A DNA stretch of 64,000 nt from Candidatus Nomurabacteria bacterium (GCA_020632015.1 JACKGI010000001.1:87574-151573); one strand, 5' to 3'. Counted from the first letter of the stretch, positions 5,752 to 56,676 are shown. Made by a program: numbers and translations. Notes: generated from the letters alone by a model not told the origin.

Positions 5752-6111
5752 CTAATTCCCAGTGCTGGCTATGTCAGGCCTTTGATAAATGTGACATAAA
5801 TATGTCATCCCGACTTGGACCCTTCTATCTTTTGGGCCAACAAGGTTGTTCATGCGCCTGAAATTCTCTTCAGTTCCGCCGCAATGTCGGACAAACTCAG
5901 AAATAAGCTCTGGGCTCTCTGCCCTTAAAAAGCGAGCGTTGTAGTGAACATTTCTACAGTTTGTACAGGCGTATTCAAGTGAATCCATATCTACTTTCTC
6001 CACCTGTATTTTGAAGCCAAAATCGTAGCTGATTGCTGGGGTACTTTCCAACGCCAGCATGAAGGCTGTGATGAGTGCGGCCAACATCGCCGCGAGTTTT
6101 TTGCTAGCCAT
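5752..6111 (-). CDS. small secreted protein, probably acquired (SD-led, GC-richer, antisense to cluster)
   Basis: Start chosen at MASKKLAAMLAALITAFMLAL (signal-like). AGGAGG at 6117-6122 lies 5 nt upstream. The track ORF extends to 6255 without support. Confidence 0.5.
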   Translation of the reverse strand: MASKKLAAMLAALITAFMLALESTPAISYDFGFKIQVEKVDMDSLEYACTNCRNVHYNARFLRAESPELISEFVRHCGGTEENFRRMNNLVGPKDRRVQVGMTYLCHIYQRPDIASTGN

Positions 6112-6306
6112 ATCGGCCTCCTGCGCATAGCGCGTTATTTCTATGAAAATCAACGAACTCATTTCGTGTGCGAAATGCACACCTAATTTATTTATAACAC
6201 GTTGTGGATAACCCGCAAGGGCAGGGAAGGTGCTTTTTTGACACCCTTTCCCCAAATTAACTAATAGTGGGCCTAAGCAATGTTTTAGTCTGATATTATT
6301 ATAAGT

Positions 6307-8476: not shown

Positions 8477-9910
8477 ATGAAAAGAACACTAATTAAATTC
8501 TTACCCATAATAATCCTCTTTATTATTCCCATCCTTAGTTTCGCTCAAGAAACAGTTGGTTACACTCCGCTTGTTGGACTTCCAGGTGTAGCTGATTCAA
8601 ACGGCTCTGGTGAAGTTGATTTTGAAAAGTTCATCAACACTTTGTATTACATGTCTATTGGGGTAGCAGCTCTTCTGGCGGTAATTAAAATTGTGATTGC
8701 GGGAGTGAAGTACATGCTGAGTGATGTTGTAACCACAAAAGGTGAAGCAAAAAATGATATCAAAGGTGCTCTAATTGGTCTCTTAGTAGTGATGGGGGCG
8801 GTTTTAATCCTTACTATAATAAACCCACAACTTGCAAATATTGACGCTGAGTTTGATAGTACAAAGACTGAGATACCTGAGTATGTTCCTCAAGTAAACA
8901 ACCAGCGTTTTGGTCCACTTGGAACTATGCTTCCAGGAGACGTTCCTTACCCTATACCCTCTACTGTATTAGCCAGTTCTCCTGCACCAGAAGGCCTTAA
9001 TGATTTGGAAAAAGCACAGTGGGTTTGTGAAAACCAAGTACTTGATGAAGAAAATAAGTACTGCCCATTAGGACAAAAGAACTCTCAAGTTGCACCAAAT
9101 CTACCTAGTCAGTCACTAGCTTATTGTTATGTTGGTGAGTGGGATGCTTTTGGTGAAAAATGTGTTGTGAGACAAGCTGATATAAAAAACTTTGAAGAGT
9201 CTGGTGGGGGAGTTGGTGGAACAAAAACCGTAACTGAAAGTGAGTTTAGTAGTGAGATGGGTAGTAAAGAATTAGAACCACCCCCAGAAAGACCAATTGA
9301 TGAAACAGCATCACTTTGTCCGGCTGGAACAACTGAAATACCATCTGCTTATAAATACCCACCAAGAAACGGAGTGGTGAATCCTATAACTGGCGACTAC
9401 ACAGACTGTGAACCAAATCCAGACACTTATGGTACATATGGAACAGGTTCTAACGGCGTCTGCCCAGCTGGCCACGACACCATCTACGATCCAGCCGAAT
9501 TAATAGACCCAGACACAAACACCTATGGCCCAACACCCGCACCAAGATGTGTACTATCTGAAGGAGGGAGTGCAAGTGGAGGTGGTGGTTACAACACCTC
9601 TTGTGTAGCAGCCGCTTGTTGTAATGTTGGAACTATTCAATCTGGAGCAAGACCAGGAGAACCAGCGGTGTGTGTAGACTCTAGTGGTAATGTTGTTGGT
9701 GTTCCTGAAACGTCAAATAATTCTGGAACAGGTGGCGTAGGGACAACTAACCCTTGCCCTCCTGGACAAATACTAGATCCTTCATTGAATGGACTATCCT
9801 TAGGAGGAATTAGTTGTGTTAACGATCCAAGTTTAACTCAAGACGAAATAAATGGAGCACTTTTTTGTGCCGCCCTCGGCAAAAGATATTCAAACGGAAC
9901 TTGTATATAA
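8477..9910 (+). CDS. T4SS pilin-like (VirB2/TrbC-type two-helix N-terminus) fused to a long Cys-rich C-terminal region
   Basis: Signal peptide, then FEKFINTLYYMSIGVAALLAVIKIVIAGVKYM...IKGALIGLLVVMGAVLILTIINP (two TM helices with a charged loop). About 350 aa with more than 20 Cys and G/P/T-rich stretches follow. Confidence 0.5.
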   Translation: MKRTLIKFLPIIILFIIPILSFAQETVGYTPLVGLPGVADSNGSGEVDFEKFINTLYYMSIGVAALLAVIKIVIAGVKYMLSDVVTTKGEAKNDIKGALIGLLVVMGAVLILTIINPQLANIDAEFDSTKTEIPEYVPQVNNQRFGPLGTMLPGDVPYPIPSTVLASSPAPEGLNDLEKAQWVCENQVLDEENKYCPLGQKNSQVAPNLPSQSLAYCYVGEWDAFGEKCVVRQADIKNFEESGGGVGGTKTVTESEFSSEMGSKELEPPPERPIDETASLCPAGTTEIPSAYKYPPRNGVVNPITGDYTDCEPNPDTYGTYGTGSNGVCPAGHDTIYDPAELIDPDTNTYGPTPAPRCVLSEGGSASGGGGYNTSCVAAACCNVGTIQSGARPGEPAVCVDSSGNVVGVPETSNNSGTGGVGTTNPCPPGQILDPSLNGLSLGGISCVNDPSLTQDEINGALFCAALGKRYSNGTCI

Positions 9911-26255: not shown

Positions 26256-26462
26256 TAATCATTACTTTGTCGTCACGAGTTACTAACCAGAATCATTCGC
26301 TACGCTCTGATTCTGCTAAGTACTCTCGACCCCGGCTCGCTGTTCGCCGCCTTAGGAAAGGGCGACTCACAACGCTCCGCCTCGGACAGACGCCGCGAGT
26401 GACATTGGTCACTCGCTAAATGAAAACACCAGTCATGTGACTGGTGTTTTCATTTGCGTCTG
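26256..26462 (-). repeat. GC-rich tRNA-3'-flank module E1 (downstream of tRNA-Lys)
   Basis: Hairpin 26421-26455. tcactcgctaaat (26409-26421) is shared with E3. The 36-mer at 26283-26318 is 34/36 identical to E2 (40194-40229) in the same orientation relative to the tRNA. Confidence 0.5.
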
Positions 26463-39927: not shown

Positions 39928-40002
39928 GCTCCCGTAGTTTAATGGATAAAATATTGGTTTGCGGTACCAGTGCTCCAGGTTCGATTCCTGGCGGGAGCAC
40001 CA
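39928..40002 (+). tRNA. tRNA-Arg (anticodon GCG), CCA encoded
   Basis: Acceptor GCTCCCG/CGGGAGC, anticodon stem TTGGT/ACCAG, loop TTGCGGT, T arm CCAGG-TTCGATT-CCTGG, ACCA end. Confidence 0.85.
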
Positions 40003-40264
40003 ACAGCCGACCCCGATGCGCATGCATCGGGGTCTTTGCTGATGGTAGCTACTGACAGAAATCGAACCGAGTCGCGACGAAGTCCACAGGCGAAGCCGAG
40101 GACCGCGACGAGTGGAGGTCAATGGAGTGAGATATTTTGTGACGACAGGAAACAAAATATCCACGAGAGTGACCGATTCCTGGCGGGAGCACGTAGCAGA
40201 ATCAGAGCGAAGCGAATGATTATGGTTAGATAAAATTTTCTGGGAGAAAGTTTTATCTAACCAT
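40003..40264 (+). mobile_element. GC-rich tRNA-3'-flank module E2, bounded by a 19-nt direct repeat of the tRNA-Arg 3' end
   Basis: cgattcctggcgggagcac occurs at 39982-40000 and again at 40174-40192. There is an 11-bp hairpin at ~40009-40034, a 36-mer (40194-40229) shared with E1, and a 14-bp hairpin at 40222-40264. Confidence 0.45.
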
Positions 40265-41732: not shown

Positions 41733-42821
41733 ATGTCGGTTCTTTCTAACATTTTGCCACCGCCAATATTTTTAACCATGCCTTGTGTTGGGGTGGATAT
41801 TTCTGATACTTCACTTAAGTATGTATCTTTCCATACTGCCACCAGATCTAGCACACAAAGGAAGATTAAGCAGTGGGGAGACATTTCGATACCAAACGGT
41901 ATCGTGCAACGAGGACAAGTAATGGATGTTCAGAAGTTAGTTTCTGTCCTAAAAGAATTTAAAGCTGCCACCAAAGCGGAATTCATAAGAGTCTCACTTC
42001 CAGAAGAAAAAGCTTATTTGTTCGAGACGACAATCAAGCCAAACACACCACTAAAAGAAATTCGCGGATTGCTAGAGTTTCGTTTAGAGGAGAATGTACC
42101 AATTCCGTCTAAGGATGTTTATTTTGATTATCTACTTTTATCAGACGGGTCAGACAAAAAAAGTGTCGAGGTGGCAGTTGCTGCTTATCCAAAAGAAACT
42201 ATCCAAAAATATTATGACGCATGTGTGGAGGCCGATTTAAAACCAGTTTCTTTTGAGGTTGAGGCTCAAGCAGTAGCTAGAGCAGTTGTGCCAGAAGATG
42301 TGAAAGGGGCGACCATGTTGGTTGATTTTGGCAAGACTAGAACAGGAATTGGTATCGTCTACAAAAATGTCCTACTGTATACCTCAACTATTGATATCGG
42401 TGGCGATGCTCTGTCTCAGGCGCTTCGCAAGGTTTTGGGGTCGGATGTAGCAGAAGAGGAATTAACGAACCTAAAAAATACCCAAGGTTTAGTAAGAGGA
42501 AAGGACTCTGCAGAAGTGCATGACACGCTAATCAGCACAATTTCTGTCATAAAAGATGAGCTGGCAACAAGAATGCAGTATTGGCACTTACGTAACGGCA
42601 GTAGCGCTGAGAGACGTATCAGTTCAGTTTTGTTGTCGGGCGGGAGCTCAAACTTAAAAGGTTTGCCAGCTTATCTAACAGAATCTCTGAATGTACCTTG
42701 CGTACAGGCCAACGTTTGGGAGAATACTTTTTCTCTTGAGACAACAGTTCCACCAATTAGTCTTAGAAAGTCGTTTGGTTATGCGACGGCGGTTGGTCTA
42801 GCGTTAAAACAAGACACGTAA
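41733..42821 (+). CDS. pilM: type IV pilus assembly protein PilM
   Basis: 362 aa actin-like ATPase-fold pattern (GVDISDTSLKYV, LVDFGKTRTGI, LLSGGSSNLKGL), followed by pilN/O-like genes. Confidence 0.8.
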   Translation: MSVLSNILPPPIFLTMPCVGVDISDTSLKYVSFHTATRSSTQRKIKQWGDISIPNGIVQRGQVMDVQKLVSVLKEFKAATKAEFIRVSLPEEKAYLFETTIKPNTPLKEIRGLLEFRLEENVPIPSKDVYFDYLLLSDGSDKKSVEVAVAAYPKETIQKYYDACVEADLKPVSFEVEAQAVARAVVPEDVKGATMLVDFGKTRTGIGIVYKNVLLYTSTIDIGGDALSQALRKVLGSDVAEEELTNLKNTQGLVRGKDSAEVHDTLISTISVIKDELATRMQYWHLRNGSSAERRISSVLLSGGSSNLKGLPAYLTESLNVPCVQANVWENTFSLETTVPPISLRKSFGYATAVGLALKQDT

Positions 42822-42825
42822 TTCT

Positions 42826-43371
42826 ATGATTAACTTAATCCCACCAAGTGCAAAAAAAGACCTAAAGAGAGAATATTGGGTCAGGGTCATTGCTGTGTGG
42901 TTATTGCTCTGGTCGGTGTTTCTTGTGGTGGGTGCCTGCTTACTTTTTCCAGTTTATGTCTTGATTGGTTCTCAAGTTGCTGTGTATAAAGACTCGGCTG
43001 AAGAGGCCTCACAAAGAGTGACTAGCTATGAGAACGTTACAACAACATTAGTTCAAGCAAGTCTGCAAGCAAAATTCGTTCTAGATGAAATTGCCGTACC
43101 AGTATTCTCAGAACAAATTGAATTATTTGAAACCTTAGAGGGTTCTGAAATTAAAATTAATAAAATTTATATCGGAAGAGGAGCGGACGGTATTGCCCCG
43201 ATATCACTTTCTGGCATAGCTAGTGGTCGACAAGCATTAGCTAGTTTCCGTGACAGAATATTAAATCTCGAAAATGTCGAGGATGTAGATTTGCCGATTT
43301 CAAATCTAGCTCAAGATAAAAATATACCATTTACCATTAAGGTTACTTTAATTAATCAAAAAGAGGTATGA
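42826..43371 (+). CDS. pilN: PilN-like pilus assembly protein
   Basis: MINLIPP start, a single TM, 181 aa. Position is after pilM. Confidence 0.6.
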   Translation: MINLIPPSAKKDLKREYWVRVIAVWLLLWSVFLVVGACLLFPVYVLIGSQVAVYKDSAEEASQRVTSYENVTTTLVQASLQAKFVLDEIAVPVFSEQIELFETLEGSEIKINKIYIGRGADGIAPISLSGIASGRQALASFRDRILNLENVEDVDLPISNLAQDKNIPFTIKVTLINQKEV

Positions 43372-43895
43372 GCAAGAGCACCAAAAATATAGTATTAATA
43401 TCAATCATCATTTTTGTTGCTTCGGCGGTTAGTTTGGGTGTAATGGCGTATCAGGTAAAAGAGCAGGGTAATCAACTGTCTAGTCATGTAGCTACTTTAC
43501 AGGCCGAAAGCGCTCAAGTTGAGTCCTATAATAAGCTCAAAAAAATATCAGAAGAAACCACAGAAGACCGAGATCTGTTACAAAGTTATTTCCTAGAGAA
43601 GGAAAGTAATAGTATTGATTTCCTTAATTTGGTCGAATCATTGGCTCCTCAGGCAGGAGTGCAGTTAGATACAGAAGGTTTGGATGTGCTAGAAACTGGA
43701 GAAAATGGTGCAAAATGGATAGAGGTTTCTTTTGTCTTTTCAGCTTCTAGAGAAAGAGTTCAAAATTTCATTAAGGTTTTAGAAACCCTACCTTACGTGC
43801 TTAGACTGACTTCAGTCGAGATGGATGGTATGAGTGCTTCAGAGTGGGAGGCCAGAGTAACAATGCAGGTACAAATATTGGATTATGATAAATAA
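43368..43895 (+). CDS. PilO-like pilus assembly protein
   Basis: 175 aa, single N-terminal TM, coiled-coil segment. ATGA overlap with pilN. Confidence 0.5.
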   Translation: MSKSTKNIVLISIIIFVASAVSLGVMAYQVKEQGNQLSSHVATLQAESAQVESYNKLKKISEETTEDRDLLQSYFLEKESNSIDFLNLVESLAPQAGVQLDTEGLDVLETGENGAKWIEVSFVFSASRERVQNFIKVLETLPYVLRLTSVEMDGMSASEWEARVTMQVQILDYDK

Positions 43896-44391
43896 AAAAG
43901 AATTTTCAAAAATTGCAAAAAGGATTTTTCACGCCAAGAGTAGTTTGCAAAATCCAAGAATAATGAATCCATCCCGCGAGTGGGGGATTGGTTTATTGAT
44001 TGGCTTCGCTTTCTTTATTGCCACGGCTGGTTGGAGTGCTCAGACTTATTTGTCTAATAAAAATGTTGGAGACATAACAAGTGACTCCTCTCAAGATGAG
44101 GTAATCGTTTATAGGGCGTCCATGGTAGAGGCCGCACTTAAGGCTTATGAACAACGCAATCAAAAACATCAACAGTTACTGAATAAAACATATGTTGCTC
44201 CTCCTGTTATTGAGGAAATAGTCGAGGAAGACACAGTTGATGAAACTTCAACTTCTAGCGAAAACGCAGAAGCAGTTTTGCCGGAGCAAAGTCTAGAAGT
44301 GAATGCAGAAGAAGTTTCAGGGGCGGAAGAAGAACCGTCAGAACCGACAGAGCCGGTAGAAGTGGCTCCTGATGTATTGTTATCGGAATAA
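43885..44391 (+). CDS. membrane-anchored protein with acidic tail (pilMNO operon member)
   Basis: 168 aa. TM helix WGIGLLIGFAFFIATAGW. Overlaps the pilO-like stop by 11 nt. Confidence 0.45.
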   Translation: MINKKEFSKIAKRIFHAKSSLQNPRIMNPSREWGIGLLIGFAFFIATAGWSAQTYLSNKNVGDITSDSSQDEVIVYRASMVEAALKAYEQRNQKHQQLLNKTYVAPPVIEEIVEEDTVDETSTSSENAEAVLPEQSLEVNAEEVSGAEEEPSEPTEPVEVAPDVLLSE

Positions 44392-44448: not shown

Positions 44449-44453
44449 CGCGG

Positions 44454-44525
44454 TGCCCCCAGTAGGAATCGAACCCACATCAAAAGGATAGAAGCCTCTC
44501 GTTTTATCCATTAAACTATAGGGGC
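44454..44525 (-). tRNA. tRNA-Arg (anticodon UCU)
   Basis: Acceptor GCCCCTA/TGGGGGC, anticodon loop CTTCTAT, T arm GTGGG-TTCGATT-CCTAC. 72 nt. Confidence 0.9.
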
Positions 44526-44593
44526 GGCAGGGGTAACCATAGCAAATTTTTTGAACTAAGAAAACACCTGCAAAGAGTATTTCTTGCAGGTGT

Positions 44594-44965
44594 TCAGTCT
44601 TCCAGAGTAAAACGAAAATCGTTCGTTTCGTTATTGGTTCTTTGAAAACCATTTTGACTCCAAAAACACTCACTATTATTGGATACTTGCACGGCCTGAA
44701 TGTGTGCAAATTTACTCTCTCTTGCCCATGTAAGTATAGTGTGAAGAACGATGCTTCCGTAGCCCTTACCTCTTTCCGGCTCGGGCATGGTGGTAATATC
44801 TGTAATAACCAGACCCTCCTTGCCCGTGTCGTTGTTAAAAACTAGTCGAACTGTGATGATTGCATCATGTTTATGAAACGTGCAAACAACAGCTTTTTCT
44901 TCAGGGTGCCAATTGCATTCCTTAACAAAGCAAATTTTAACTAAACTCAAGATGTGTTTATCCAT
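44594..44965 (-). CDS. GNAT-family N-acetyltransferase-like protein
   Basis: RGKGYGSIVLHTILTWARE...FWSQNGFQ. Start at MDKHIL, with GGAGG (44974-44978) 8 nt upstream. Terminator hairpin at ~44558-44590. Confidence 0.55.
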   Translation of the reverse strand: MDKHILSLVKICFVKECNWHPEEKAVVCTFHKHDAIITVRLVFNNDTGKEGLVITDITTMPEPERGKGYGSIVLHTILTWARESKFAHIQAVQVSNNSECFWSQNGFQRTNNETNDFRFTLED

Positions 44966-45024
44966 CGCCAGTTCCTCCAAGAGTATGTCTGCCCTAAGGA
45001 TACTGATTGTGGTTTTTGGTGCAA

Positions 45025-45057
45025 GTGCGCGATGAGGGACGACGTTAGAACGGTTTT
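45025..45057. repeat. degenerate copy (B) of the tRNA-Val 3' end plus shared extension
   Basis: gtgcgcgatgagggac versus tRNA gtgcgcgatgagagac (15/16). The extension gacgttagaacggtttt is shared with copy C. Confidence 0.6.
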
Positions 45058-45116
45058 GCAAGAGAAAAGCCCTGTATATTAAATACAGGGCTGATTCAGA
45101 GAGTGTCTATCAGTAG

Positions 45117-45443
45117 TTAGAAGTTAAGCCGAAACTCTGTTCCGTAATCATTGAAACCTAGTCGGATATACCATTCGTGAACTGTAGAGCGTGTTCCGTC
45201 GTTACGACTTGTCGCAATGAGCTTATAGCAGTTTTCCTCTGCCTTTTTCAATACAGCTTCAAGCAATTCTTTGGCGATACCTTCACCTCGATAGCTTGAA
45301 TCCACAAACACGTCTTCCAGTAAACCAAATGGTCTATTATGTAAATCATTGTTGAGCATATAAAGATATGCTCGACCAACTTCTTTGCCGTCTCTTAATA
45401 CTGAAAACCGTATACCTTTTGTATAAACCGCAGCTTCTTTCAT
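45117..45443 (-). CDS. GNAT-family N-acetyltransferase
   Basis: VDSSYRGEGIAKELLEAVLKKAEE (acetyl-CoA-binding motif A). AAGGAGA (45449-45455) lies 5 nt upstream. Terminator hairpin at ~45070-45095. Confidence 0.75.
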   Translation of the reverse strand: MKEAAVYTKGIRFSVLRDGKEVGRAYLYMLNNDLHNRPFGLLEDVFVDSSYRGEGIAKELLEAVLKKAEENCYKLIATSRNDGTRSTVHEWYIRLGFNDYGTEFRLNF

Positions 45444-45564
45444 GGGTATCTCCTTTGAGTACTTCTAAGATGTAAAACTTGGCGACATAAACAAAAGTTC
45501 TAAAGTATTCACTTTTTCAATTCAGTATATAAAAATGAGCCTTGCAAAACAGACTCATTTTATT

Positions 45565-45597
45565 TGCACGCGATGTGGGGCGATGTTAGAACGGTTT
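45565..45597. repeat. degenerate copy (C) of the tRNA-Val 3' end-derived repeat
   Basis: gcgatgtggggcgatgttagaacggttt versus copy B gcgatgagggacgacgttagaacggttt (25/28). Confidence 0.55.
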
Positions 45598-45626
45598 GAC
45601 TGATGAGGTTGAGGTATAATTTTTAC

Positions 45627-47081
45627 ATGGAACCAGAAACTGTCACTCAAGAGCAAGAAAAATTTGGGAGTATAAAAAAAGAAACCTCCGCAGCAAAATA
45701 CTTAGCAATGGCACTTTTTATTACCTTGCCGTTTATTGGTGGATGGATTGGGTATCAGTATGGAAAAAATGAAAGCAAAGGGGACAGTCTTGCGAGGTTA
45801 GCAGTAGAAGAGAGGGTTGATGTCTCCGACAACCCTGAAGTAAATTATGAAGAGAAAACATATTATTCCAATAAGTTAAATCTGTCTTTTTATATTCCAG
45901 ACGGGTGGGAGATTGTTCCTGGGGCAGACGTGAAAGCGCCAGCTGCAATTTCTGATATAAAATTATCTCTTCGTGAACCAGGTTCCGGGTGTGTGATTGC
46001 TTTTGCTGATTTAGATTTGGATAATCATGATTACGTGCAAACTTCTTTTGGGGCAAGGGTGAGCAGTAATGTGTCTCAATATGGTGGTAATTGGTATACC
46101 AACCAAGCTTTCTATGAAAGTAAAATTTCTTTTTCTGGAGATGATAGACAGTATCTAGCACACGAAGTTTTAAGTGATTACTTAGGGGGGCATAGCAGTT
46201 TGCTATGGCAAGAGGACAATGATCCAGTTTCAGCTAATTGTGTTAAAGCTTACGAAGGTCTGGTTGCAAGTTCTAACTATCATTATATGGAATACAGCCA
46301 TACTGGTTATATTGATGGTTTAATTTCAGTCAGCAGGTCGTATGCAGGTAGAGATTCTGGGCTTGAAGATACTTTAAGACTAATTTTTTCTGTAGAGGAC
46401 AGCGCCACCCGGAACAACGGAAACATTTATGAAATTATTGAAATGCCTTGGAGTGTGAACGGATCTAGGATTTTTGTTGATGGTCTAGCTTTTAATTTCT
46501 ATTCTTCTGATGAGGATGGCGGTATAGTTTTTAATAAGTATGATTTAGAGAAAGGATACGTAGAGGAGATATTTGAACACCCTGAAGGAGGAGATTCTTA
46601 TGTAGTGGACTATATTTTTACTAGTAATGGAGAAGTTTACTATCTAGCTGGTTCAGATGGAAATTATGCTTGTATGGATGGTTACAAATCAGTATGTAGT
46701 TTAACCCTTTATAAATTCTCTCCGTCTGAGAGCGGCAAACCCGTTCCTCTGGTTTCGAGTGTTAAAGCTACTAAAATATTCGGTGTAGCTGAAGACGGAA
46801 CCATACATATGGCCAGAGGTTATGGAGATGCTGGTTGTGTTAGTGCCACATTCTCCAGTTATAAAGATGGAGAATATCAAGAGGGAGAGGGGTTGGGAGG
46901 CTGTGTAGGTCTTAATGGTCCTGATGAAGGGTATGTGGAATACCATAAAAGGCTAGATTTGATAAAAGACAGTATAACGAGTGACTATACTAAAATGCTT
47001 TTCTACCAAAACTCCAAGCTCACCGCCACCACCTCAGAGTCTCACAACAATATCTCATCTAGCTTTGTGATTCTAGATTAA
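45627..47081 (+). CDS. membrane-anchored extracytoplasmic protein of unknown function
   Basis: Start at MEPETV, with TATAAT (45615-45620) 6 nt upstream. TM helix YLAMALFITLPFIGGWIGY. Terminator at ~47140-47160. Confidence 0.55.
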   Translation: MEPETVTQEQEKFGSIKKETSAAKYLAMALFITLPFIGGWIGYQYGKNESKGDSLARLAVEERVDVSDNPEVNYEEKTYYSNKLNLSFYIPDGWEIVPGADVKAPAAISDIKLSLREPGSGCVIAFADLDLDNHDYVQTSFGARVSSNVSQYGGNWYTNQAFYESKISFSGDDRQYLAHEVLSDYLGGHSSLLWQEDNDPVSANCVKAYEGLVASSNYHYMEYSHTGYIDGLISVSRSYAGRDSGLEDTLRLIFSVEDSATRNNGNIYEIIEMPWSVNGSRIFVDGLAFNFYSSDEDGGIVFNKYDLEKGYVEEIFEHPEGGDSYVVDYIFTSNGEVYYLAGSDGNYACMDGYKSVCSLTLYKFSPSESGKPVPLVSSVKATKIFGVAEDGTIHMARGYGDAGCVSATFSSYKDGEYQEGEGLGGCVGLNGPDEGYVEYHKRLDLIKDSITSDYTKMLFYQNSKLTATTSESHNNISSSFVILD

Positions 47082-47165
47082 AGTATTTTGGAAAATAAAA
47101 TCCATTTCTAACAACCTTACTGCTTATGAAACAAGAAAAAATGCCCGCAAAGCGGGCTAACTAAT

Positions 47166-47356
47166 GTGCGCGATGAGAGACTTGGCGCCAGTTCTAAACT
47201 CGTCATTCTTCCTTGTTAAGAACTCGCTGCCCCGGCGCTCAAATCGTCCTCACTTCGTTCCGGGCGATAAATTCGCTTTCTTCAAGTCTCCCCTCACTCG
47301 CTAAATCTGAGACACAATAGACCCCAGACTATACAGTCTGGGGTCTATTGGTCTAG
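47166..47356 (-). mobile_element. GC-rich tRNA-3'-flank module E3, bounded by a 19-nt direct repeat of the tRNA-Val 3' end
   Basis: gtgcgcgatgagagacttg occurs at 47356-47374 (tRNA) and at 47166-47184. A 15-bp hairpin sits at ~47317-47349. tcactcgctaaat (47294-47306) is shared with E1. Confidence 0.45.
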
Positions 47357-47429
47357 TGCGCGATGAGAGACTTGAACTCCCGACCTTCTCGGTGTAAACG
47401 AGCTGCTCTACCAACTGAGCTAATCGCGC
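47357..47429 (-). tRNA. tRNA-Val (anticodon UAC)
   Basis: Acceptor GCGCGAT/ATCGCGC, D arm GCTC..GAGC, anticodon loop TTTACAC, T arm GGGAG-TTCAAGT-CTCTC. 73 nt, no CCA. Confidence 0.9.
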
Positions 47430-47519: not shown

Positions 47520-47696
47520 TTAACGACGTATGCACGATGTCGGTGGTCTGCGGGATAGTCCGCGATTAACCTCATCTCGTCTCGGAGTTGGTATTTTTGC
47601 TTCCGTCTTTTCCTTCTTTTCTGGCGGAAGACAACCGTGCTCGTTGAGATATGAACGATTCTTCATAATAGCGTCGTATACGGGTGTGTCAGTCAT
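47520..47696 (-). CDS. small basic protein (58 aa), below track cutoff
   Basis: Hand translation gives MTDTPVYDAIMKNRSYLNEHGCLPPEKKEKTEAKIPTPRRDEVNRGLSRRPPTSCIRR. GAAGGAG (47703-47709) lies 6 nt upstream, and TTGCAA-17-TATAAA is further upstream. Terminator hairpin plus T-tract at ~47478-47515. Confidence 0.35.
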   Translation of the reverse strand: MTDTPVYDAIMKNRSYLNEHGCLPPEKKEKTEAKIPTPRRDEVNRGLSRRPPTSCIRR

Positions 47697-47778
47697 CAAT
47701 GACTCCTTCTATTGTTTTGGTACGGCCAGTTTCTTTTATAATTCGAAATTGTTATTTTTGCAAGGTATACTGTCACTT

Positions 47779-56472: not shown

Positions 56473-56676
56473 GGCTACCGGTAATCGTCCTGACGGTCAC
56501 CAAGTTATTTTATTTCGTACCTCATAAAATAACTGGTGCCGCGGGACACGGCTCCTTTGTTTGCAAGCTCACATCAGTCCACCGTTCGATTCCGGACGAA
56601 AGTGACGCAGGTCACTTTCTTAGCACTTTCACCAAAAAGAAACCTCTTCCAAAAGGGAAGAGGTTTCTTTTTGCCG
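56473..56676 (+). ncRNA. ~200-nt structured, partly GC-rich insertion ending in a strong terminator
   Basis: Absent from the paralogous segment at 57283-57384. 15-bp hairpin at 56498-56538. GAAAGTGAC/GTCACTTTC hairpin at 56598-56619. T-loop-like GTTCGATTCC. Terminator aaagaaacctcttccaaaagggaagaggtttcttttt at 56636-56672. Confidence 0.35.

Follow-up and report, generated by a model that had tools for sequence, protein, structure and literature searches.

Introduction

The attC sites of integrons are foldable, imperfect inverted repeats (R''-L''...L'-R') of 57–141 nt, and clusters of attC sites that lack an integrase are termed CALINs. The rtT (RttR) repeats of Escherichia coli have a unit of ~178 nt in published descriptions. 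Tycheposons of Prochlorococcus are tRNA-seeded islands built by transient integrative elements (bioRxiv 10.1101/2020.12.28.424599), and the background on the rtT repeats of E. coli tyrT/tyrV is given in a further preprint (bioRxiv 10.1101/2024.07.17.603846). Here we describe a 64,000-nt stretch of DNA (one strand) from a Candidatus Nomurabacteria bacterium (GCA_020632015.1 JACKGI010000001.1:87574-151573), hereafter the window, in which the segment between tRNA-Val(UAC) and tRNA-Arg(UCU) is probably a clade-wide recombination hotspot where small, mostly single-gene cassettes accumulate. The segment holds two unannotated conserved features, a 33-nt motif, M, and a structured element, N.

The overall logic of the locus matches tRNA-seeded island accretion, and the architecture of its units resembles that of integrons and CALINs without the defining integron features. 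As with tycheposons, the genomes are streamlined and the island lies beside a specific tRNA, with partial tRNA copies between its tandem units; integrase-carrying elements are rare and transient (here 3 of 50 syntenic loci), and cargo accumulates with the newest next to the tRNA. In contrast to tycheposons, the units are single genes of 0.3–1.6 kb without an integrase, and their boundary is a conserved 33-nt motif that is only partly tRNA-like, whereas tycheposons are bounded by a partial tRNA. At the present site large serine recombinases (LSRs) are seen, while most tycheposons carry tyrosine recombinases, and here a structured element duplicates the attachment end.

The likeness to integrons and CALINs lies in co-oriented arrays of mostly single open reading frame (ORF) cassettes of about 0.5–1 kb, each closed by a recombination-site-like repeat whose distal bases are swapped with the insertion partner. 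The proximal insertion site is fixed, GNATs and small enzymes are abundant, and no integrase adjoins the array. The cassettes described here differ in carrying their own terminators and Shine-Dalgarno (SD) sites and in being anchored on a tRNA 3' end. We rejected an integron identity for the locus, as there is no IntI or attI and the 33-nt M has no hairpin and no inverted partner. LSR elements that target tRNA genes provide a further comparison. In relatives of the window, a gene encoding 512–597 aa at the element edge reads across the junction into tRNA-Val, and a displaced tRNA 3' copy is left behind and then decays. In contrast, the window has neither such a gene nor such a scar, and its units end in M.

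Results

Variation of the Interval between the Two tRNA Genes

Using UppS as a synteny anchor, we gathered 1 GTDB locus and 73 metagenome loci for comparison (referred to below by L numbers). The UppS of the collected loci is 44–67% identical to that of the window, one 22-residue fragment excepted, and the ORFs in these loci were called mechanically. The gene order is kept across loci: tRNA-Arg(UCU), the interval, tRNA-Val(UAC), acylphosphatase/UppS and tRNA-Leu. In the 27 syntenic loci with both tRNAs, the interval measures 491–5696 bp and contains unrelated small accessory ORFs.

In the window, tRNA-Val(UAC) lies at 47356–47429 on the minus strand (ARAGORN; Rfam tRNA, 67 bits), and tRNA-Arg(UCU), which marks the distal limit of the variable interval and is itself conserved, at 44452–44525, also on the minus strand (ARAGORN; Rfam). 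Reading outward from tRNA-Val, we find N, a unit encoding a 484-aa protein and closed by copy C of M, a GNAT cassette (GNAT1) closed by copy B, an old tRNA-type flank and a second GNAT gene (GNAT2).

Insertion of Units after tRNA-Type Ends

We refer to the final 19 nt of tRNA-Val (47356–47374; plus strand GTGCGCGATGAGAGACTTG) as site T, at which the primary insertion end reads ...CAAGTCTCTCATCGCGCAC. Empty and filled versions of this site can be compared directly. In L063 tRNA-Val is followed by its flank, whereas in L074 it is followed by a 1082-nt unit ending in M and then by the same flank (88/90 identical); the pairs L031/L018 and L072/L038 show the same pattern. In relatives, both cassettes and serine-recombinase elements start directly after the tRNA-Val 3' end. 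One MazG cassette is located behind the tRNA end in three loci (L018, L020 and L062) and behind the N end in L041, with 57/60 identity from the second base, which indicates that the tRNA and N 19-mers are interchangeable targets.

The GNAT1 cassette recurs whole in the tRNA-Val array of L075, another Nomurabacteria genome, where its gene is 81% identical and its position in the array differs, as do the units beside it. The alignment between the window and L075 spans the leader, SD site, ORF, terminator and M and stops exactly at ...GCAC, with a compensatory change in the terminator stem. Insertions begin within 0–2 nt of ...GCAC in independent events. On the strength of these alignments, it is well supported that the units have been inserted right after a ...GCAC end, which can belong to the tRNA, to N or to another M.

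We counted 31 non-redundant M-terminated units of 322–1597 nt (median 618), which are preceded by a tRNA end in 7 cases, by an N end in 12 and by another M in 12. A single ORF is present in 26/31 units, and 22/30 ORFs are co-oriented with the tRNA. A mobile unit thus consists of a gene, in most cases a terminator, and M at the tRNA-distal end.

Motif M and Its Hybrids with tRNA Ends

M has the tRNA-orientation consensus AAAACCGTTCTAACGTCGTCCCACATGGTGCAC. An nhmmer search of the 74 loci and the window (710 kb) returned 40 matches in 25 loci, every one of them on the tRNA strand and within the interval downstream of tRNA-Val; M was not found elsewhere in this search space. The motif is 90–100% conserved across genomes whose UppS is only about 50% identical to that of the window. 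Its 3' part reads ...CCCACATGGTGCAC, and its last 16 nt are identical to the tRNA-Val end at 12/16 positions. The final ~16 nt of T, N and M are related to this degree (12/16 identical) and occur as mosaics of one another.

The window contains two copies of M, both on the minus strand: copy C at 45565–45597 (nhmmer E = 2e-6) and copy B at 45025–45057. In tRNA orientation both read AAAACCGTTCTAACGTCGTCCC..., and they share 29 nt at 90% identity; a degenerate 28-mer derived from them occurs only at these two places in 64 kb, with a chance expectation of 0. Copy B is a hybrid of the motif 5' part and the tRNA-Val 3' end (TCATCGCGCAC), matching the latter at 15/16 positions over 45025–45040, and the 25 nt that follow it are like the flank downstream of tRNA-Val at 17/25 positions. 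The 3' part of copy C (ACATCGCGTGC) is a degenerate mosaic of motif and tRNA-end sequence. Both copies are thus mosaics, in which tRNA-end sequence has taken the place of the 3' part of the motif.

Such hybrids are not confined to the window. In L075 the M that closes the GNAT1 cassette is near-canonical (...CCCACCTGGTGCAC), whereas copy B in the window combines motif-left with tRNA-right (...CCCTCATCGCGCAC); further M-left/tRNA-right hybrids are found at L046-1755, L008-1222 and L075-7274. The reciprocal hybrid, N-left and M-right, occurs in L084, where an N with a 3' arm ending in ...CATGGTGCAC adjoins a patchwork M. A crossover in or at ...GCAC would be compatible with the M/T junctions, although the hybrid positions vary over ~13 nt. 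No inverted partner of the M 3' half or of the tRNA end was found in the units. M is also absent from IMG/VR, and we rejected a phage origin on this ground.

Cassette Units and Their Cargo

Across the units, the cargo comprises GNAT, two NUDIX families, MazG, HD, HAD, SOUL, AAA_33 kinase-like, LD-carboxypeptidase, ADH and Shedu nuclease genes, which is typical flexible-pool content. The Shedu (SduA_C) defence nuclease is encoded by an M-bounded cassette in L008 (1810–3066, minus strand), so the array can carry anti-phage genes.

In the window, the GNAT1 cassette (45025–45564, minus strand) is composed of a leader hairpin (about 45532–45561), a 5' UTR with a well-spaced SD site (AAGGAG), the gene, a terminator (45068–45092) and copy B of M. 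The gene (45117–45443, minus strand) encodes 108 aa with Pfam matches to Acetyltransf_7 and Acetyltransf_1 at about 1e-12 (46.7 and 45.6 bits, above the curated cut-off). The exact protein is on record as a Candidatus Nomurabacteria protein, and its homologues are overwhelmingly proteins of the Candidate Phyla Radiation (CPR), the more distant ones being located outside arrays.

GNAT2 (44594–44965, minus strand) is the distal unit adjoining tRNA-Arg, with an SD site (GGAGG), likewise well spaced, and a terminator at 44562–44595. It encodes 123 aa and matches Pfam Acetyltransf_1 at 5e-5 (24.0 bits versus a cut-off of 20.7), and a 31%-identical homologue sits just after an M in the L004 array. 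A start at an upstream TTG, which would place copy B inside the coding sequence, was rejected, because the L004 homologue, when aligned, points to the ATG at 44965 as the start.

The remaining ORF (45627–47081, plus strand) encodes a 484-aa membrane-anchored protein, is convergent on N and forms, together with copy C, an N-to-M unit of 1597 nt. The protein has no Pfam match. Its N-terminal anchor is common to same-position genes in L002, L028 and L054, and only two distant full-length homologues were found, one of them again convergent on an N-like unit. We rejected a sigma-70 promoter of this gene overlapping copy C, as the hexamer spacing is 13 nt and the promoter scan did not list it.

Strong SD sites precede 23% of interval ORFs versus 9% of core-side ORFs across the loci (Fisher p = 0.002), and 53/62 core ORFs in the window have no SD-like match. 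In many core genes a TAAT-rich stretch (such as ATAATCT or ATAATTT) immediately precedes the start codon, as seen upstream of 2738, 25554 and 41733, which suggests a non-SD initiation signal in the host.

The original prediction, made from the sequence of the window alone, had placed in this interval two GNAT genes with strong SD sites that core genes lack, each followed by its own terminator hairpin, and no integrase. All of this agrees with our results: the Pfam acetyltransferase matches of both genes are above cut-off, both terminators are present, core genes mostly lack SD sites, and the only ORFs in the interval are the two GNATs and the 484-aa protein, none of them integrase-like. The same prediction had proposed to look for k-mer/GC deviation of 44594–47081 and for non-CPR best matches of the cargo, and neither was borne out. 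The GC content overall and at third codon positions and the trinucleotide distance are host-like, the latter lying at the 2nd percentile, i.e., less deviant than in typical windows, so that compositional foreignness was rejected. The best matches of GNAT1 are in CPR bacteria. Because there is no GC or k-mer deviation and GNAT1 best matches CPR proteins, we conclude that the cargo is exchanged among members of the clade and does not stem from distant donors.

Recombinases and the Mode of Insertion

LSRs of 512–597 aa with Resolvase, Recombinase and Zn-ribbon domains occur in relatives. Among the 50 syntenic loci with enough sequence downstream of tRNA-Val, three (L016, L019 and L039) have an LSR gene that is convergent with tRNA-Val and overlaps its 3' end. 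With L079–L084, which were retrieved through the protein, and L040, which holds a 25-residue fragment at the contig end, ten relatives in all have an LSR adjoining the tRNA-Val 3' end. A second LSR type is located at tRNA-Arg(UCU) in L038 and L044; because these loci carry a serine recombinase there, tRNA-Arg(UCU) may be a second hotspot. The LSR ORFs (L019 2385–4127, L039 3568–5310, L016 499–2292, L038 279–1817) stop inside the antisense target tRNA, as exemplified by the tail ...VRAERLELPTSSV, whose stop codon lies in the anticodon loop, and nearly all of the 56 LSR homologues end in antisense-tRNA peptides such as ...GIEP... or ...LELPTSSV. Complete LSR elements (L081 and L084) span about 5.3–5.7 kb and end in a decayed ~32-nt copy of the tRNA 3' end, followed by the ancestral flank (terminator and N). 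From these gene and element ends it is clear that site-specific recombinases use tRNA-Val in the clade.

A tyrosine-recombinase box II pattern returned nothing credible in six-frame translations of the window and the loci; pattern searches of this kind are crude. M was also considered as a serine-recombinase attP half-site, on the ground that its GTTC box is 5 nt more distant from the end than that of the tRNA. This argument fails because the distal ends of the recombinase elements are decayed tRNA copies with tRNA-like spacing, and the candidate was rejected.

In the explanation that we favor, new units would enter tRNA-proximal sites of the hotspot by site-specific recombination and push older ones outward, with the recombinase acting in trans. 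LSRs or a relative would be the best candidates, because they are the only recombinases seen at the site in relatives and their genes abut the tRNA-Val 3' end. The LSR elements themselves leave a different, decaying scar, and we infer rather than observe that LSRs are responsible for the M-bounded cassettes.

Several observations weigh against this explanation. No recombinase was detected by pattern and homology searches in the 64-kb window or inside any M-bounded unit, and the complete LSR elements in L081 and L084 do not end in M. The cassettes have no universal start sequence (P' site), many of them beginning with an A-rich tract and a hairpin, which places in doubt whether single cassettes are independent recombination substrates. 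The hybrid junctions are spread over ~13 nt, the one in L084 being a patchwork. Within the window, GNAT2 carries no terminal motif, and the 484-aa gene may be a resident long-term neighbour of N rather than cargo, since one distant homologue is again convergent on an N-like unit. Finally, related metagenomes supply many of the loci, so the counts given here overstate independence.

In a rival model without any site-specific recombinase, a "replacement" flexible island would be remodeled by homologous recombination, with T, N, M and the flanking tRNAs as short stretches of homology that anchor DNA taken up from related cells. Because their positions vary, the hybrid junctions, one of them patchy and gene-conversion-like, are more readily explained by homologous exchange or gene conversion than by a serine-recombinase crossover at a fixed 2 bp, and the host-like composition of the cargo, the CPR homologues of GNAT1 and the lack of a recombinase in the window are also in line with such a model. 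We nevertheless consider it unlikely. The homology tracts are merely 16–33 nt, and independent insertions start within 0–2 nt of ...GCAC; all 40 copies of M are co-oriented on one side of one tRNA, and site-specific recombinases demonstrably use tRNA-Val in relatives.

Element N and Its Copy of the tRNA End

In the window, N is ~138 nt long (47166–47303, minus strand) and is supported by its fold (z = −6), its homologues and covariation. Its 5' arm (47285–47303) is complementary to its 3' arm (47166–47184), copy A, which is an exact duplicate of the 19 nt of site T. In shuffled sequence no copy of the tRNA-Val end within 3 mismatches is expected, and two were observed. An intrinsic terminator with a T-run on the minus strand only (47143–47157) lies directly after N.

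N measures ~140–175 nt in the family. Among the 50 loci that extend far enough downstream of tRNA-Val, an nhmmer profile detects it behind this tRNA in 29. In 23 loci and the window, a second copy of the tRNA-Val end is located 142–220 nt downstream, and it tracks each locus's own tRNA variant (GCGCGAT, GCGCGCT or GCGCGTT; ACTTG or ACTCG), mostly with 0 mismatches. The sequence from tRNA-Val to this second copy is homologous across loci and consists of a terminator-like hairpin, the 5' arm, a core with conserved motifs and the 3' arm. The 5' arm, complementary to the copy, is often interrupted by a conserved ~21-nt hairpin. RNAalifold identified compensatory changes in 9/19 consensus pairs, and in 17/37 once Arg-linked copies were added. 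Part of the covariation of the P1 helix may stem from copying of the tRNA end at the DNA level and not from selection on the helix, although the internal helices of N co-vary as well. In one consensus pair G-U predominates, so that the structure can be assigned to the tRNA strand. Copy A is thus no decaying scar but a 3' arm, apparently functional, of a conserved structured element.

This bears directly on the original prediction, in which A, C and B were displaced tRNA 3' ends decaying with age, left by three integrase-mediated islets that had entered serially at a tRNA-Val att site. Much of what that model was built on stands. The three repeats are present far beyond chance in shuffles, the interval is variable across relatives, as had been foreseen, and accretion at the tRNA is upheld insofar as the empty-versus-filled comparisons place insertions exactly at a tRNA-Val-type 3' end. 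Direct repeats of the tRNA end do border the units, the stretch of 25 nt behind B does resemble the tRNA flank at 17/25 positions, and true decaying displaced copies exist at the far ends of the LSR elements in L081 and L084. The progressive decay of A, C and B is what had to be abandoned. Copy A is exact, tracks the tRNA in 23 relatives even where the tRNA differs and pairs with a co-varying 5' arm, and the 171 nt between A and the tRNA are a conserved element rather than the trace of a deleted islet. Copies B and C cannot be in-situ decay products because their non-tRNA part is a motif that is 90–100% conserved in 25 other loci. The covariation of A with the tRNA and the conservation of M already contradict the serial-islet model, which is therefore improbable. 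Its division into three cassette units holds for GNAT1, which recurs as a unit in L075, but not evidently for the 484-aa gene, which looks like the long-term neighbour of N and is no obvious cassette.

The same nhmmer profile detects paralogues of N in relatives after tRNA-Leu(GAG), tRNA-Ser(UGA), tRNA-Arg(UCU) and tRNA-Arg(GCG), and their arms match the 3' end of their own neighbouring tRNA, the encoded CCA included where present. A second family member in the window (40040–40192, plus strand) lies downstream of tRNA-Arg(GCG) (39928–40002). Its 3' arm (40174–40192) is an exact 19-nt copy of the end of that tRNA (39982–40000), with a copy-to-tRNA spacing of 192 nt versus 190 nt at tRNA-Val. 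In addition, the window contains an orphan intergenic copy with degenerate arms and no adjoining tRNA (56495–56626, minus strand; nhmmer E = 4e-10) and a decayed copy downstream of tRNA-Lys(UUU) (26262–26418, minus strand). Two tandem "terminator + N" units follow tRNA-Arg(UCU) in L042 (7144–7487, minus strand), each ending in the 19-nt end of that tRNA.

Neither the window element nor the L017 element has an Rfam match, even at E ≤ 10 and with RtT included. A CCGGAA-like stretch prompted us to consider N as signal recognition particle RNA, which was rejected for want of an Rfam match at E ≤ 1 or gathering score; tmRNA was rejected as well, since ARAGORN finds none. Ten IMG/VR matches to a 16-mer from the core of N proved spurious, as nhmmer did not support them and no tRNA lay in their vicinity. 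Taken together, the alignments and predicted folds indicate that N is an unannotated family of tRNA-linked structured elements whose arms track the adjoining tRNA, the two arms reproducing, as a helix, the acceptor/T-stem 3' strand of the upstream tRNA. Most likely, N would provide a duplicate landing site that spares the tRNA and/or would be a processed RNA.

The nearest analogue of N is the E. coli tyrT rtT repeat, which is alike in architecture and not in sequence. In both, the unit lies behind a tRNA and has the last 19 nt of this tRNA as its own end; for rtT this is tRNA-Tyr, as read from MG1655, in which the copies of the 19-mer are about 190–200 nt apart. The MG1655 repeat also has an upstream arm (GGGGAAGGAT) complementary to part of the 19-nt copy (ATCCTTCCCC), and tandem repetition is possible in both, as seen for N in L042. 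In contrast to rtT, N falls outside Rfam RtT (RF00391) and every other family, forms a family linked to several tRNAs, its core being conserved and its 5' arm containing an additional conserved hairpin, and serves as a cassette insertion end. We know of no such role for rtT.

Neighbouring Features

A perfect 16-bp hairpin (47315–47350, minus strand; detected as an inverted repeat) lies just downstream of tRNA-Val in the position of a terminator, with no T-run. It is part of a conserved "TAGACC-hairpin-GTGTCTCAGATTT" flank, a module that is also present in L001, L002 and L031.

On the other side of tRNA-Val, just upstream and between it and the acylphosphatase gene, there is a small, conserved basic ORF (59–87 aa; shared pattern VYD..M...PP...TPRR), located at 47520–47699 in the window and at 9457–9720 in L001, both on the minus strand. 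L001 also contains, at 9248–9369, a duplicated 5' fragment of tRNA-Val (GCGCGATTAGCTCAGTT) with an insert of ~100 nt between the fragment and the intact gene. Within this insert lies GGTGAGAAAGTCTGGGAGACTTT, a ~23-mer that also interrupts the second copy of N in L011 (about 6052–6123); this may be a small mobile insertion. Beyond tRNA-Arg(UCU) synteny is broken too, with pilM/N/O-like genes at 41733–44391 in the window versus an ACP/acyltransferase cluster at 5996–8202 in L001.

Discussion

It is very improbable that M is a cis-acting expression signal (such as an operator, a UP-like element or an RNA-processing site) that goes with the genes of this region, and that the array arose by ordinary rearrangement. 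In favor of such a reading, M is usually preceded by a terminator and, in several loci, followed 6–10 nt downstream by a TTGACA box, and its orientation is fixed relative to the transcription of most cargo genes. Against it, M is absent from the other ~700 kb of the loci and the rest of the window, the homology-defined unit boundaries coincide exactly with the 3' terminus of M, sequence is exchanged between its 3' part and the tRNA end, and 8/30 cargo ORFs are on the opposite strand.

Beyond the hotspot itself, it is possible, if doubtful, that N and M are parts of an unrecognised CPR cassette-capture system, an integron analogue anchored on tRNA ends. In such a system N would act as a "programmable" folded RNA or single-stranded DNA whose arms, by copying the acceptor/T-stem end of the adjoining tRNA, define a safe landing site, and M would be its counterpart on the cassettes, where a recombinase would act in trans. 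On this view, rtT in E. coli could be a relic of the same principle.

CPR bacteria (Patescibacteria) have tiny genomes, and their exchange of accessory genes is largely unexplained; to our knowledge, few mobile elements have been recognised in them, and a literature search for CPR integrons or cassette arrays returned nothing relevant. The locus described here shows a clade-wide, mechanism-like pattern, with a fixed insertion end, a cassette tag, portable single-gene units that include defence genes (Shedu) and candidate recombinases. Moreover, the N family opens a comparative approach to the rtT repeats of E. coli, which have long lacked an explanation.

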